Origin: an uncultured Deferribacteres bacterium
Lineage (GTDB): Bacteria; Zhuqueibacterota; Zhuqueibacteria; Zhuqueibacterales; Geothermadaptataceae
Direction: 5' to 3'
DNA length: 49,342 bases
Assembly (NCBI GenBank): GCA_964014485.1
Contig: CAXHAT010000033.1
Location: 1-49,342 of the forward strand
Position 1 is the stretch's first letter; each line of letters begins with the position of its first letter. The notes under the pieces are model-generated. The model was given only the letters and a program-made list of their open reading frames with translations, had not been told where the DNA came from and did not search any database. This document shows, piece by piece, positions 44,003-49,251 of this stretch. The position numbers and the translations under genes were made by a program.

Positions 44003-45934
44003 ATGAGCCATATCTTCCATCAAAAAAACTACAGCGGTTTTAACTTTGAAGTCGCGAAAAGGTGGGCCCCGATCCATTACCAGGATATCGATGATGATAA
44101 CCATCGTGCGGACTATATAAGCGCCGTGGACTTTGATGGAGATTGGCGCACAATTGGGAATTGGGACAACATGAACCGCTATCCTTTAATCCCTGTGGTT
44201 TATTTCTCTGTTGCCGAAACCTATACACATTGGTTTGTTATCTACATGTTCTATCATCCTAGAGATTGGCACGACGATAGATTTGGCGGAGGCAAGCATG
44301 AGAACGACGCTGAAGGTTTGCTCACTATTATCAAGAAGCCTTACGGCATCTGGAGATATTACTATCCAACGGGCTTTTATCGAGGAATGGTCACGATAGC
44401 CCATGATGATTTCTGGTCTTATTCCAATGTTCTCTCTTCTAATCGAGAAGATATCGATGGCAGAGTGATATTTACAGGACTTAGGGCAGGATCAACCACA
44501 GTTTTACATCCATCGACTTATCAAGAATCGGAAGGGCATGGTTGTTACGCCTGGAATGGTCGACAATTCCCCGGCGGCGATGGTCTTCGATATTATCCGT
44601 GGCATTGGGCTAAAGAGCCTCGCGGATATGGCAAAATTGGCAAAGTCGACGCGCCTTATGTGTTAGTTGATATCTTTGAAAACGGTGGACTATGGGACCG
44701 TCGATGTGCATCAATTAATGAGCCATTTACAACAGCCCGTAGATTTGCCGGCCGTAAGCATGATGACGACAAAGCTTCGCCCCCATGGAATTGGGATGAT
44801 AAGGATGACGGCTCAGATTTGCAAGCCGGTGCTTTGGCGTATAACCCGTCGTATCTTTGCTCGAGATATTTCTCCGGCGAATATTTTAGCCCATACTATG
44901 TAAACAATCGATATTTCAATCTGTCATGTCGAAGAAATCAGAGTGAACTGGTTAAGTTACTATCCGATGGCGATAATGAAGCAAAATACTCTGCTGCTTT
45001 AGATCTTTTCCAAAGTAATAACACTGTAGCGATAGATCAAGTGGTTGATGCTGTAGTCGAACAAAACTACTCTTGGGAGGCTATTGCAGCACTCTCCCAA
45101 AATGCCACAAAGAGCAAAAAAATATTAGAAAAAGCCTCGCATCGCATTTTGAAGCATTTCAAGACATATAAAAAATCCGGGCGATTAAAATTAGGGAGAA
45201 AAGAATATGTGACGGACTCCCGTCAACTAGCGCCCTTAGTTTATTTAATGGGCGAACTAAAAAATCCTGCTTTCACCACGCCTCTTGTAGAAATTTACAG
45301 CTCTCGTTCAAACACTTTTCTTCAGCATATAGCAGGAGAAGCTTTGGCGAAACATGATGTCAAGTATCTGAAAGAGTCTCGTGATTTGAGCAACGCATTG
45401 CAAAACGGAATCAATAGCTTTAATCGCGATGTGAGAGGAGCCAGTGCCGCCTTGTTCGGAAAATTATCTTCCCAAAAGAATATCGAACCTATCATCCCTC
45501 TATTATCTGATGATTTTCCAAATGTACGCATAAAAGCAATAGAAGCGATGAACGGCTCGCAAAGTTTCGATACTCTTGGCATTTTAAAAAATTTACTTGA
45601 TGATTCGCAATGGGACGTTAAGGAAGCCGCCGCTAAAACGCTTATTAATAACTTCAGATTTGAGGGATTAGACTACGTAGTCAATAAATTTAAGGAGGAA
45701 GCTTCCTGCGTTTATGAACTTCTAAGCTCAAATAAAAATAATATTACTGTGAATTTTTCTGAATGCCAACAAACAGTTGAAGAATCAGGCAGGATGAGAA
45801 TGATGGAGACCATAAGCGACTCTATGTTTAAGTATAAGCCAGATTTAGAGCTTCGATTATCTCAGATCACTTCCGAAAAACAAATACCAGAAGAACAGGT
45901 TCGGGAAATATCAGATATTACAACGAGTGAATAG
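44003..45934 (+). CDS. NPP1/Vps62-like N-terminal domain plus HEAT repeats
   Basis: WAP.HYQ, VYFSV.ET..HW...Y.FYHPRDW, HENDAEG, EGHG; C-terminal VR..A..ALG-type repeats; AGGAG RBS; no signal peptide. Confidence 0.55.
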   Translation: MSHIFHQKNYSGFNFEVAKRWAPIHYQDIDDDNHRADYISAVDFDGDWRTIGNWDNMNRYPLIPVVYFSVAETYTHWFVIYMFYHPRDWHDDRFGGGKHENDAEGLLTIIKKPYGIWRYYYPTGFYRGMVTIAHDDFWSYSNVLSSNREDIDGRVIFTGLRAGSTTVLHPSTYQESEGHGCYAWNGRQFPGGDGLRYYPWHWAKEPRGYGKIGKVDAPYVLVDIFENGGLWDRRCASINEPFTTARRFAGRKHDDDKASPPWNWDDKDDGSDLQAGALAYNPSYLCSRYFSGEYFSPYYVNNRYFNLSCRRNQSELVKLLSDGDNEAKYSAALDLFQSNNTVAIDQVVDAVVEQNYSWEAIAALSQNATKSKKILEKASHRILKHFKTYKKSGRLKLGRKEYVTDSRQLAPLVYLMGELKNPAFTTPLVEIYSSRSNTFLQHIAGEALAKHDVKYLKESRDLSNALQNGINSFNRDVRGASAALFGKLSSQKNIEPIIPLLSDDFPNVRIKAIEAMNGSQSFDTLGILKNLLDDSQWDVKEAAAKTLINNFRFEGLDYVVNKFKEEASCVYELLSSNKNNITVNFSECQQTVEESGRMRMMETISDSMFKYKPDLELRLSQITSEKQIPEEQVREISDITTSE

Positions 45935-45950
45935 CTAAAGAGATGCCCCG

Positions 45951-47852
45951 ATGCAACTTAAGGAAGCATTAAACCTGATAAAACTGCGTACGCTAAGGGA
46001 TACTTCAAAAGGAAGCTCACAGATCAAAATCGGTTTAATTGATGGTCCAATAGCCGTCAATCATGCCGCCTTTCAGGGTTCTAGGGTGAGGACTGTTTAT
46101 GAGACTCAGCCGAGTTCATGCAAAATTACCAACAGCATAGCCTGCCGGCATGGGACATTTGTCGCGGGAATTCTGGCTGCAAAAAGAGAGTCCCTCGCAC
46201 CTGCACTGTGCCCAAATTGTGAAATAGTTTTGCGCCCTGTTTTTTCTGAAGAAACCCGGGATTTTGAATCGGTCCCAGTCAGCACCCCCAAGGAATTAGC
46301 TATCGCAATAATCGAAACGGTAGATGCAGGGGTAAAGATCATCAATCTTAGCCTAGGGCTATCTACGGCTTCCTTACAGCAATATAATAACCTGGAAAAT
46401 GCTTACGACTATGCTCGTCAGCGTGGCGTTATTCTGGTGGCCGCATCTGGCAATCAAGGGAATATTGGCTATGCTTCACTTCTCAATCATCCGTGGATTA
46501 TTCCGGTAGCTGCATGTGATGCTCGGGGAAGGTTAATGCCTAATTCAAATATTGGTTCTTCGATCGGTAAGCACGGATTGATGGCGCCGGGTGAAAATAT
46601 ATTGAGCGCTTCGCCAAATGGAAAATACACTCATATGAGCGGCACAAGTGCCGCCGCTCCCTTTGTAACCGGAGCAGTTGCACTTCTTTGGTCAGCATTT
46701 CCAACGGCAACCGCTAACGAAATAAAATTTTCTATCCTAAAAAACGCTCCACGTTCTCATCGTAAAATAATACCTCCAATATTGAATGCAGAAACGGCGT
46801 GGAAAATACTCACTAAAGATCACAGATTATTAAATCATGAAAGGAGTAAGACTATCATGAACAACATTCAACGATTGAATCAGTCGGCTCAAGAACAACG
46901 ATCTCACAAAGCCGAGGTTACGCCTGCGCAAGAGCAAGATAACCCGCCGGATTTTCCGCCAAATGTGCCGGAAAATCCCGAAATGGCTCCAACCCCATCT
47001 ACGCCTGAGCTTCCGCCCGCGCCGGAAATGAACACAGGAGAAAATTGTCCGACATGTGATGAAAGAACCGAAGTAGGAGCAGAACCCGAATCGTTTATTT
47101 ATGCAATCGGGACTATTGAAGCGAGATTTCCGTCGATGGCTATCGAGAATGAGTTTGCCCAAGCGCTTCAGGGTGAAAAAACCGCCAATCTCACTGACGA
47201 CCAAGTTATGTATAGAGTCCTTAAAGCGAATCGTTACCTCGCACGCGAAGTCTGTTGGGTGCTTAATATTGAAGGAATAGAAACCTACATTCTTCTTTGC
47301 AATGACCTTACAGATTTGGATCAACTGATCGAAGCAATCAAACCTGGAAGGCGAAGAGCGTTTGATTGCGATGTTGTGATTGGCGTCAAAGGCCCGATTG
47401 CTCAGGCGGAAATGTGTAACGGATTGCAGGCGCCTATTGTGGCGTTTGACAGAATTTATTCTTTCGATATTCCGATGCTAATCAAATCGATCCCAAAACC
47501 TGACGATGTTGATGAAAAAGTTTTTCGCAGAGCGGCGGAAGAATTGTTTTATCGGATTCAGCAAATGGCGGATAACGTCGGCGCCATGGACGAACATCGC
47601 GCCTTGAATTATCTGGTTGTACGTTATCCACGAATATATGATTTAACAGCCGAAAAATTTTCGGAGGATTTCTCTTTAACGGATGTGGAAGTGATGCCTT
47701 CTCGTCTTACCGGCGTCCGTAAGCTCTTGAACGTGGTTCTGTCATACACCAGTAGAAAAACGGATGTCACAGAAAAATATTACGTTCGGGTGGATGTGTC
47801 TGAGAAGTATCCGTTCTTGCTCAACAAACTGGCGCCCTTTTATGATAGGTAA
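45951..47852 (+). CDS. PatA/PatG-like S8 subtilase with cyanobactin-protease C-terminal DUF
   Basis: Triad IDG, HGTFVAG, SGTSAAAP; oxyanion ASGN; Pro-rich linker, CPTC; YAIG.IE.RFP, ADN.G..DEHRALNYL.VRYP.IY, TDV.EKY.VRVDV.E.YPFL...L.PFYDR. Confidence 0.85.
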   Translation: MQLKEALNLIKLRTLRDTSKGSSQIKIGLIDGPIAVNHAAFQGSRVRTVYETQPSSCKITNSIACRHGTFVAGILAAKRESLAPALCPNCEIVLRPVFSEETRDFESVPVSTPKELAIAIIETVDAGVKIINLSLGLSTASLQQYNNLENAYDYARQRGVILVAASGNQGNIGYASLLNHPWIIPVAACDARGRLMPNSNIGSSIGKHGLMAPGENILSASPNGKYTHMSGTSAAAPFVTGAVALLWSAFPTATANEIKFSILKNAPRSHRKIIPPILNAETAWKILTKDHRLLNHERSKTIMNNIQRLNQSAQEQRSHKAEVTPAQEQDNPPDFPPNVPENPEMAPTPSTPELPPAPEMNTGENCPTCDERTEVGAEPESFIYAIGTIEARFPSMAIENEFAQALQGEKTANLTDDQVMYRVLKANRYLAREVCWVLNIEGIETYILLCNDLTDLDQLIEAIKPGRRRAFDCDVVIGVKGPIAQAEMCNGLQAPIVAFDRIYSFDIPMLIKSIPKPDDVDEKVFRRAAEELFYRIQQMADNVGAMDEHRALNYLVVRYPRIYDLTAEKFSEDFSLTDVEVMPSRLTGVRKLLNVVLSYTSRKTDVTEKYYVRVDVSEKYPFLLNKLAPFYDR

Positions 47853-47884
47853 AAATAAAACCAATAACTTAGGAGAATTCAGCT

Positions 47885-48723: not shown

Positions 48724-48957
48724 ATGAATCTTCCAGGTTTCAACGCTGAGGCAAGCTTTAACCCCAAGATCAAACAATATCTCGGGAAAAATTACTACAG
48801 ATGTACTATGCGAGAATGGAGCTTTTCACAGCAGCCTAACGAGTTGGGCGGAGGAGAAGATGAGTTCGACGAATCTAATAAGATCGAACAAATGAAATTT
48901 AACTATCCGGAATCTGAAGAGGCGATGCTTTTGGGGATACATGATGATAAAGCTTGA
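48724..48957 (+). CDS. Small LPGFxAE-leader peptide
   Basis: AAGGAGG RBS; MNLPGFNAEASF; acidic C-terminus. Confidence 0.7.
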   Translation: MNLPGFNAEASFNPKIKQYLGKNYYRCTMREWSFSQQPNELGGGEDEFDESNKIEQMKFNYPESEEAMLLGIHDDKA

Positions 48958-49005
48958 GGTGCTCGGATGCCTTAAGCAAGTTCATAAATTTGCATAAAGA
49001 ACACT

Positions 49006-49251
49006 ATGAAATCAATAGAGCAACACGAAGATTTCAATCTCTCTGCCGAGACGCAGGATCAAGAGCAAAATCGTGAAGAACATCAGCCCCATCGATTGAA
49101 TATTCCTGGATTTATTAAAGAAGAAATTGGTCTCGGTGATGTAGTAAAGCGCGTCTCGAGCACAATAGGAATTAGACCTTGCAGTAGCTGCCAACGTCGT
49201 GCAATTGCGCTCAACCGATGGCTTGTTTTTTCTCCACGACGTCCGAAATAA
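49006..49251 (+). CDS. Small IPGF / CxxC protein
   Basis: RLNIPGFIKEEIGLGDVVKR..S.IGIRPCSSCQRRA.ALNRW. Confidence 0.7.
   Translation: MKSIEQHEDFNLSAETQDQEQNREEHQPHRLNIPGFIKEEIGLGDVVKRVSSTIGIRPCSSCQRRAIALNRWLVFSPRRPK

Follow-up and report, generated by a model that had tools for sequence, protein, structure and literature searches.

Genes at the locus

The DNA analysed here, referred to below as the window, is the whole of contig CAXHAT010000033.1 (C33; 49,342 nucleotides), one of the 465 contigs of an 8.4-Mb, 97%-complete genome from an uncultured Deferribacteres bacterium (assembly GCA_964014485.1). Five open reading frames (ORFs) sharing one direction occupy the last 5.3 kb at its 3' end, and all five lie where a preliminary description of this DNA had placed them. 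We suggest that four of them (45951-49251) are a copy, with a variant architecture, of a widespread cassette for the processing of pro-peptides, in which a conserved leader would be removed by a subtilase. We give this reading a probability of about 0.6. The cassette would have four parts: a cytoplasmic subtilase of the PatA type, the domain of unknown function (DUF) of PatA/PatG, a small CxxC protein that we call B, and one or more precursors bearing what we call the PGF leader. The genes and their features, in window positions, are as follows (aa, amino acids; nt, nucleotides).

44003-45934, + strand: HEAT-repeat protein, 643 aa, 16 nt upstream of the protease gene
45951-47852, + strand: S8 subtilase-DUF fusion, 633 aa (Pfam; 20-sequence alignment)
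46017-46754, + strand: peptidase S8 domain of the fusion, aa 23-268 (Pfam, alignment)
46041-46043, 46149-46151 and 46647-46649, + strand: codons of the predicted catalytic residues D31, H67 and S233 (alignment)
47094-47840, + strand: PatG_D/PatG_C (DUF) part of the fusion (Pfam)
47885-48445, + strand: precursor 1, leader plus phospholipase A2 (PLA2), 186 aa (leader profile E 6.8e-7; Pfam)
47885-48004, + strand: leader of precursor 1, aa 1-40, M-S-T-LPGFTAEA ... R-I-V-P-Q, which fits the family logo and the V-x-P-Q spacing
48005-48442, + strand: predicted mature PLA2, 146 aa, isoelectric point (pI) 9.6 (motif conservation)
48724-48957, + strand: acidic PGF-leader protein, 77 aa (leader profile E 1.7e-4)
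49006-49251, + strand: CxxC protein B, 81 aa (hidden Markov model, HMM, E 4.1e-26)

Comparisons were made over a set of 81 loci, consisting of the window and the best 80 of 396 related stretches. The search for these relatives took one genome per species; the window protease alone retrieved none, and an alignment of metagenomic relatives retrieved 396 of 408 candidate stretches. Fetched relative loci are denoted L0xx, related genomes G0xx and library proteins P0xxx.

A leader family linked to the protease genes

The pattern M-x-h-P-[GE]-F, where h is a hydrophobic residue, picks out 163 small ORFs in 71 of the 81 loci, the window included. They share a Cys-poor leader of about 38 residues with the consensus M-x-h-P-G-F-T-A-E-A-S-L-Y ... 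Y ... V-x-P-Q. Residue counts at its positions, with the 163 ORFs anchored on the motif, are listed below.

Start: M, then x
Hydrophobic position before P: M 62, L 47, I 47
P: 163
Position after P: G 145, E 18
F: 163
After F, in order: T 122, A 156, E 125, A 88, S 123, L 117, Y 83
Next three positions, commonest residues: K 51, T 64, S 44
Third residue after these three: Y 125

In 110 of the 163 ORFs a second motif, [V64/I27/L9]-x-P-[Q67/A28/S12], is found at a distance of some 33 residues from the anchor towards the C-terminus (interquartile range 32-34), and beyond it conservation falls to background. The fraction of Cys is 0.3% before this motif and 11.9% after it. The A-E-A-S segment (leader residues 8-11) is common to the cargo, the acidic protein and, in an acidic form, B; V-x-P-Q is restricted to the cargo and marks the onset of variability and of cysteines.

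It had been proposed from the window that the motif is tied to PatA/G-DUF genes, and a leader profile (A2), built from 85 of the 163 ORFs, bears this out. The profile has 232 matches in 78 of the 81 loci. The first 5 kb downstream of the DUF gene, taken on the protease strand, account for 13% of the sequence searched and contain 217 of these matches. In the 78 loci the DUF gene is followed directly downstream by between one and six leader-bearing genes, the first of which starts at a median distance of 39 nt from it (33 nt in the window). When five whole genomes (about 20 Mb) were searched in six frames, all 15 matches at E<=0.01 fell within protease loci. In the window's own genome the profile matches two of the window ORFs, a precursor on contig C369 that is described below and, weakly (E 0.065), one long unrelated frame. 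The shorter pattern [LIVM]PGF.[AEK]E occurs seven times in the six frames of the 8.4-Mb genome, three of them in the 1.4 kb of the cassette. Searched against 1.84 billion cluster representatives, the profile retrieved 5,638 proteins at E<=0.001, with 130 at E<=1e-10, and among the best 150 library representatives the motif lies within the first 10 residues in 144. Their conservation excludes the notion that these are chance ORFs. The leader, B and the acidic protein are all without a model in Pfam and NCBIfam.

Four library proteins (P0065, P0067, P0072 and P0078) have two leader copies in one ORF, and these could be either fused neighbouring precursors or true tandem precursors.

Cores and cargo

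The cores behind the leader are hypervariable (medians 47 residues and 6 Cys) and belong to precursors that have a median length of 85 aa and range from 60 to 300 residues. An even number of Cys is found in 130 of the 157 precursors that have any (83%; binomial p 2e-17). The same is true of 120 out of 145 library representatives that form an independent set (p 4e-16), and of 236 among 464 small ORFs of the same loci that served as controls. Such parity is expected if all the cysteines pair in disulfides. The cores are therefore probably disulfide-paired peptides, and paired cysteines would in turn imply an oxidising, extracytoplasmic destination. None of the 163 precursors has AYD within its last 12 residues, and there is no C-terminal consensus that might represent a follower.

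Precursor 1 of the window has 12 Cys, all of them within its 146-aa core. This core contains the two features by which secretory phospholipases A2 are recognised, namely the calcium loop (Y-G-N-Y-C-G-P-G-H-G) and the catalytic His-Asp motif (C-K-R-H-D-W-C-Y). The 186-aa ORF matches the Pfam model Phospholip_A2_4 (PF08398) at 24.3 bits, above the cut-off of 23.9, and Phospholip_A2_1 (PF00068) at 29.5 bits, below the cut-off of 32.1; its orthologue in L006 scores 38.4 bits with PF00068. Apart from the window's own protein, a search retrieved nine relatives. Twelve PLA2 proteins were aligned, among them those of the window and L006 and the library protein P0112, whose leader is canonical; all bear the leader, one of them with V-G-F in place of P-G-F, and G50, C53, G54, P55, G56, D68, D71, C74, H77, D78 and C80 are invariant. 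The cargo of the 186-aa ORF is thus a putative secretory-type phospholipase A2.

The preliminary description had emphasised a folded, toxin-like enzyme behind the leader. This is real, being found in the window and in 11 other proteins, but it is the exception: the usual cargo is a short cysteine-rich peptide, and leader-tagged folded enzymes are a minority. Other long cargo includes Stig1/MXAN_6577-like cysteine-rich domains. In L014 (2926-3456) a 176-aa GAF-domain protein with a TTG start begins L-T-LPGFTADKS, which puts a leader-like N-terminus in front of a domain of the cytoplasmic sensor type; the TTG start makes this case less certain, and it may be real cargo or a chance start.

The acidic 77-aa protein that follows precursor 1 has the first half of the leader, no V-x-P-Q, one Cys and an acidic tail (pI 4.6). 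It has counterparts in the two closest loci, of 69 aa in L006 and 72 aa in L008. That it might neutralise the PLA2 is only a guess.

The protease and its DUF

The 633-aa protein matches Peptidase_S8 (E 3.4e-33, aa 23-268), PatG_D (E 7.7e-28) and PatG_C (E 1.3e-30), each above the Pfam cut-off, and the DUF part is preceded by a Pro/Glu-rich linker containing a conserved C-P-T-C. In an alignment of this protein with 19 relatives D31, H67, N168 (the oxyanion Asn) and S233 are all invariant. An intact S8 protease fused to the DUF typical of PatA/PatG, as originally read from the window, is therefore confirmed at the level of domains and residues, and from its catalytic residues the predicted subtilase looks active. 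No N-terminal hydrophobic stretch is visible by eye in the protein.

The closest solved structures to the S8 domain are those of the N-terminal cyanobactin proteases PagA/PatA (4h6v, 3zxx and 4h6w; E 4e-36 to 7e-31), and the domain scores 128 bits with PagA as against 58 with the PatG macrocyclase. The DUF part gives a pairwise E of only 0.0045 with the solved PatG DUF (PDB 4uvq). The 633-aa protein alone matches PatG_C in the whole genome. In most relatives the S8 and DUF proteins are encoded by separate genes; the fused form occurs in three of the 81 loci, and a fused form with B downstream in the window and L008 only.

Two genomes of the same order contain a different S8-DUF protein (L004, G020:C22, 8470-11720; L005, G011:C102, 3067-5850) that matches PatG_C at 141-143 bits. 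Behind it come small ORFs, rich in Cys, that lack PGF and have another N-terminus in common, M-[KR]-[LI]-[PS]-x-[QL]-x-x-G. This N-terminus looks like a second type of leader for the same kind of machine.

The CxxC protein B

Three small ORFs of the window were initially grouped by a shared motif. The motifs are as quoted there, but the third ORF, B, belongs to another family in which the motif is internal. The window copy of B has a hydrophilic N-terminus followed by Q-P-H-R-L-N-IPGF, G-L-G-D, C-S-S-C and L-N-R-W. An HMM of the core finds the family in 59 of the 81 loci, with the core sequence [VI]-R-L-P-G-F-x-x-[DE]-E-[IV]-G-L-G-D-x-[IV]-K-R ... G-I-[KR]-P-C-x-x-C-x-x-R-A-x-x-L-N-R-W. Upstream of the motif the frame is still coding, with some 20 hydrophilic residues and, immediately before PGF, a conserved (Q)-P-[HY]-R, which places PGF within the protein and supports the ATG at 49006 as the correct start. 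B is thus a conserved accessory protein, of a family separate from the precursors, and is not cargo. In 53 loci its gene lies between separate S8 and DUF genes (as a single copy in 51 and with a second copy there in two), so that the usual order is S8, B, DUF, precursors.

An AlphaFold2 model of B (28 sequences) is confident over aa 29-76, with a block at 83-92 on the pLDDT confidence scale from residue 31 and a mean of 76, and has the fold strand-PGF-strand-helix-CxxC-helix-strand. Compared with 48,161 PDB representatives the model gave no usable match (best Z 2.6), and a look-up in the Atlas returned only unnamed clusters, some of them viral. The B domain is also found as a fusion: to the C-terminus of S8 proteins, to DUF and FHA proteins, to one large membrane protein, and to membrane-anchored proteins containing three thioredoxin-like CxxC domains. 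In library examples (P0317, P0298, P0313-P0315, P0325 and P0328) it is embedded in proteins with an N-terminal membrane helix and two to three thioredoxin-like CxxC domains, or stands at the C-terminus of FHA proteins or of a multi-pass membrane protein of 674 aa. Its fusions to thioredoxin-like and membrane proteins may offer a lead on export.

Extent of the cassette and its surroundings

The contig stops 91 nt past the last cassette gene, and DNA contigs from three runs of one study reach 18 nt past the window end. It had been suggested that the locus may run on beyond this point, but the gene order of a Zixibacteria chromosome (L006) argues that it probably does not: there the S8, DUF, PLA2 precursor, acidic protein, a Cys-rich precursor and B follow one another and then comes a convergent antiporter gene. 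With B last in that locus, the cassette most likely stops at 49251 and is probably complete within the window. A canonical patD/patE set just downstream, which by the preliminary description would refute its reading, is not found at the L006 locus, which ends at B and the antiporter.

There is nevertheless a further precursor at the edge of another contig of the genome (C369 of G000, 3832-4212, minus strand), 161 nt from the end of 4.4 kb. It is a Cys-rich member of the family of 126 aa, with a leader that begins M-N-A-PGFTAEV and an L-V-P-A motif. By manual count one Cys lies in its leader and ten behind the motif, in agreement with the proposed boundary between leader and core. This gene may be adjacent to the window end or may be part of a second locus; the end of C33 shares no overlap of 15-200 nt with C369 or with any other contig of the genome.

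All-against-all clustering of the 1,608 ORFs of the 81 loci gave only three recurrent groups: the precursors, the S8/DUF proteins and a shadow of B on the antisense strand. An ABC ATPase, present in eight loci, comes next. By Pfam, the 133 nearest flanking genes are unrelated and mostly housekeeping. YcaO, lanthipeptide and radical SAM enzymes are absent from them, as are immunity genes and recurrent transporters. A second S8 gene of the kind that encodes the PatG macrocyclase was not found among the nearest neighbours, and the locus has a single S8 gene. YcaO (PF02624) has no match anywhere in the window's genome; the same search, run as a control, gave matches in 5 of 14 known genomes. The preliminary description had noted that the window lacks a YcaO/PatD, PatF or PatE-type cassette, and this holds for the window and the 133 neighbours, with YcaO absent genome-wide and no AYD follower on the precursors.

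The preliminary description had treated all five ORFs as one system. Four of them belong; the 643-aa HEAT protein has no counterpart in the other 80 loci and was rejected as a component. Its C-terminal half contains HEAT repeats (Pfam), and its N-terminal 320 residues resemble a bacterial hypothetical family of the Atlas, with template-modelling (TM) scores of 0.77-0.84, and the NPP1 and Vps62 folds, with TM scores of about 0.55. Further upstream (39986-43436, + strand) are a Ser/Thr protein kinase (643 aa, with a multi-pass membrane C-terminal half) and then a GAF-sigma54-activator-HTH regulator (499 aa), a pair for which no link to the cassette was seen in other loci. The greater AT-richness attributed to the five ORFs is partly upheld: GC content per kb is 0.39-0.46 in the cassette region and 0.41-0.56 elsewhere in the window, but other stretches of the window are similarly AT-rich.

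Distribution

The relatives span about 12 phyla. The best 80 loci come from Proteobacteria (29), Acidobacteriota (22), Cyanobacteria (9), Chloroflexota (4), Nitrospirota (3) and Planctomycetota (2), from two archaea (Methanoperedens and Methanotrichaceae), from one member each of Zixibacteria, Spirochaetia, Flavobacteriaceae, Entotheonellaceae, Actinomycetota, Myxococcota and Ignavibacteria, and from two unclassified bacteria. The occurrence of cyanobactin protease parts outside the Cyanobacteria, which was first proposed for the window, is therefore general, 71 of these 80 loci being non-cyanobacterial. Among 61 related genomes the cassette is present in three.

Cultured carriers include Sinorhizobium mexicanum ITTG R7 (on a plasmid), Methylobacter luteus and Nitrosospira multiformis. 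On the conjugative plasmid pEmeITTGR7b of S. mexicanum (L086, 6240-7290) the S8, B and DUF genes are accompanied by two readable precursor genes. Plasmid gene tables annotate the cassette genes as 'S8 family serine peptidase' and 'hypothetical protein', and the table for pEmeITTGR7b, which is incomplete, does not contain either precursor gene. A plasmid of Streptomyces sp. NBC_01568 (L087, 3246-5219) has S8, B and DUF genes, no precursors, and a Tn3 transposase 0.7 kb downstream. In two cyanobacterial loci (L020, 3469-3918; L030, 3745-4191) the precursors are followed directly by an ORF of 148-149 aa from the Tse2 ADP-ribosyltransferase toxin family (E 5e-18 and 2e-19), which starts without the PGF leader.

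A proposed mechanism and its alternatives

In the mechanism that we favour, the leader would keep the cargo inert and present it to the subtilase and DUF, perhaps together with B. The subtilase would then cut after V-x-P-Q, at the boundary between leader and core, and/or after A-E-A-S near the N-terminus, and the released disulfide-rich peptides, in the window the basic PLA2, would act outside the cytoplasm as toxins or antimicrobials. Removal of the leader by the S8 enzyme is suggested by the type of protease, its strict adjacency to the precursors and their leader/core architecture. The gene content, the conserved motifs, the exclusive co-location, the intact catalytic residues and the Cys parity are observations; from them we infer cleavage and its site, the reading of the leader by DUF or B, the toxin nature of the cargo and its exit route.

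The leader contains look-alikes of two sites known for S8 proteases. As summarised in a 2023 review (PMC10885120), cleavage by PatA-like enzymes takes place after G(L/V)E(A/P)S, which A-E-A-S resembles, and the cytoplasmic S8 protease ElxP recognises (D/E-5)(L/V-4)-x-x-(Q-1), which V-x-P-Q resembles. We favour V-x-P-Q as the candidate site for freeing the product, because it is specific to the cargo and stands at the onset of variability and cysteines, and the PGF...Y segment as a candidate recognition element. As readers of the leader, the obvious candidates would be the DUF and B.

Several points weigh against this mechanism. The NCBIfam PatA/PatG model TIGR03895 scores the 633-aa protein at 149 bits, with a cut-off of 421, and by that curated measure the protein is not a cyanobactin protease. 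Mann et al. 2014 (PMC4259220) saw no binding of the PatE precursor by the PatG DUF in isothermal titration calorimetry and nuclear magnetic resonance experiments, and a reader function for the DUF is therefore without precedent; a 2025 article (PMC12639078) still counts it among domains of unknown function. The leader contains two competing candidates for the cut site, and V-x-P-[QAS] is not recognised by pattern in 53 of the 163 precursors. The presence of PGF inside the predicted folded mini-domain of B suggests that it may be structural rather than a docking tag. Finally, no signal peptide is seen in the protease or the precursors by eye (no predictor was run), and there is no exporter in the cassette or among the 133 nearest neighbours, despite the paired cysteines. 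Export is thus the weakest point of the favoured mechanism.

It is possible that the trio of S8 protease, CxxC protein and DUF has a wider meaning, as an ancient and self-contained pro-protein convertase of bacteria and archaea. The DUF and the CxxC protein would read the PGF leader, and hypervariable disulfide-rich peptides and small toxin enzymes would be handed to the protease and perhaps, from there, across the membrane. Cyanobactin pathways would then be a specialised cyanobacterial offshoot retaining the DUF as a relic, which would explain why the PatG DUF does not bind PatE. We put this forward tentatively, as a proposal with the odds somewhat against it.

A rather unlikely alternative is that the leader is an address tag, by which the DUF and/or B capture PGF cargo for export, membrane delivery or packaging, with the protease trimming it only later. 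The DUF and B are conserved as well as the protease is, B domains are fused to membrane-anchored multi-thioredoxin, large membrane and FHA proteins, even Cys counts imply an extracytoplasmic fate, and folded enzymes such as PLA2 bear the tag. However, there is no pore, ATPase or shell gene in the cassette or among the 133 nearest neighbours, the DUF and the free B have no membrane segment by eye, and the S8 domain is of the leader-peptidase type.

The cassette might also be an intracellular module for suicide or defence, in which a trigger such as a phage leads the protease to activate stored pro-toxins, such as PLA2 and membrane-active peptides, and the cell dies. Its compact, self-contained and patchily distributed form (3 of 61 related genomes), its occurrence on plasmids and near a Tn3 transposase, and its toxin-like cargo would suit such a role. 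We nevertheless judge it improbable: PADLOC returned generic subtilase/IetS-protease matches for the S8 protein only and none for the DUF, B or the precursors, the DUF is unmatched in 50,697 phage records, no conserved sensor domain is present, and multi-copy hypervariable cores with paired cysteines suit secreted peptides better.

Nitrifiers, methanotrophs and anammox bacteria have a high demand for copper or iron, and many carriers of the cassette belong to these groups. With a median of 6 Cys the cores could in principle be metal-binding or storage peptides with thiolate ligands, whose release the leader and protease control; yet metal sites do not require even numbers of Cys, and neither the hypervariability nor PLA2 or Stig1-like cargo fits, which makes this very improbable. 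That the window holds part of a canonical cyanobactin cluster, or another cluster for peptides made by ribosomes and modified after translation, whose modifying enzymes lie off a contig ending 91 nt past the last gene is barely credible given the 97%-complete genome without YcaO, the closure of the syntenic Zixibacteria locus at B and its convergent antiporter gene, the lack of any recurring modifying enzyme in the 81 loci and the 163 precursors without an AYD-type follower.

Two known signals that resemble the leader were considered and rejected. Class III signal peptides have the form G-F-x-x-x-E, cut between G and F, with Glu at +5 and then a hydrophobic helix of about 20 residues. In the precursors Glu is at +5 in 3 of 163 and at +4 in 125, and no hydrophobic 20-residue stretch follows F (maximum mean hydropathy 0.78, threshold 1.6), so that a type IV pilin-like signal does not fit. 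Nor does PGF-CTERM, since the PGF motif here is N-terminal and no hydrophobic helix comes after it.

Significance

The PGF cassette would belong to a known kind of process, the leader-guided proteolytic maturation of ribosomal peptides. No published description of the cassette was found in Pfam, NCBIfam or the full-text literature, subscription-only journals not being covered. What the window contributes is the fused S8-DUF protein, the PLA2 cargo with its acidic companion, the exclusivity of the leader in whole genomes and the Cys parity, together with the fusion partners of B and two candidates for the cut site. If our proposal of leader removal by the subtilase is true, the cassette would represent a very large family of ribosomal peptides, with no fewer than 5,638 clusters at 50% identity. 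The peptides would look like counterparts, in bacteria, of defensins, knottins or conotoxins, with the protease as the sole modifying enzyme required, and the cassette would provide a route to leader-blocked pro-forms of folded enzymes such as phospholipase A2 in bacteria. The cyanobactin DUF, whose function has been unknown since 2005-2014, gains candidate partners in the PGF leader and the CxxC protein. Since the cassette is small and portable and has cultured carriers, these claims are directly testable.

Comparison with known systems

The nearest relatives among known systems are the cyanobactin proteases PatA/PagA. The S8 domain is closest to their structures, the PatG_D/PatG_C DUF is present in both, the protease of the PGF cassette looks cytoplasmic as theirs is, and the A-E-A-S of the leader resembles the PatA site. 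Unlike the cyanobactin pathway, the PGF cassette has no PatD/YcaO, PatG macrocyclase or PatF, and no precursor of the PatE type, which combines short cassettes with an AYDG follower; its precursors are 60-300 residues long with Cys-paired cores. Its S8 and DUF proteins are usually encoded by separate genes with B between them, most of its best loci are non-cyanobacterial, and its protease falls under the TIGR03895 cut-off.

Class I lanthipeptide proteases (LanP, such as NisP and ElxP) are also S8 enzymes that take off an N-terminal leader, as the PGF protease putatively does. ElxP in particular is a cytoplasmic enzyme, and the L/V at -4 and Gln at -1 that it reads correspond to the V-x-P-Q of the PGF family. 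In contrast, no LanB/LanC (or LanM) or other modifying enzyme is found among the 133 neighbours of PGF loci, the cores are Cys-paired and not patterned in Ser/Thr and Cys, and lanthipeptide systems have neither the DUF nor B.

Eukaryotic pro-toxins of the conotoxin or defensin type, and the zymogen of pancreatic PLA2, have a pro-region, a disulfide-rich mature part and a subtilisin-like convertase. The PGF precursors share with them, by analogy only, a conserved pro-region, a hypervariable disulfide-rich part, putative removal by a protease of the S8 clan and a pro-form of PLA2. They differ in having no signal peptide or secretory pathway, and no homology is claimed between the leaders. Polymorphic toxins, lastly, resemble the PGF precursors in combining a constant N-terminal module with swappable C-terminal parts, in the presence of several paralogues per locus and in toxin domains, represented at PGF loci by PLA2 and by the nearby Tse2-like ORF in L020 and L030. 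Compared with polymorphic toxins the PGF loci have no conserved secretion-system marker or immunity gene, their cargo is much smaller, and a dedicated protease is always adjacent to it.

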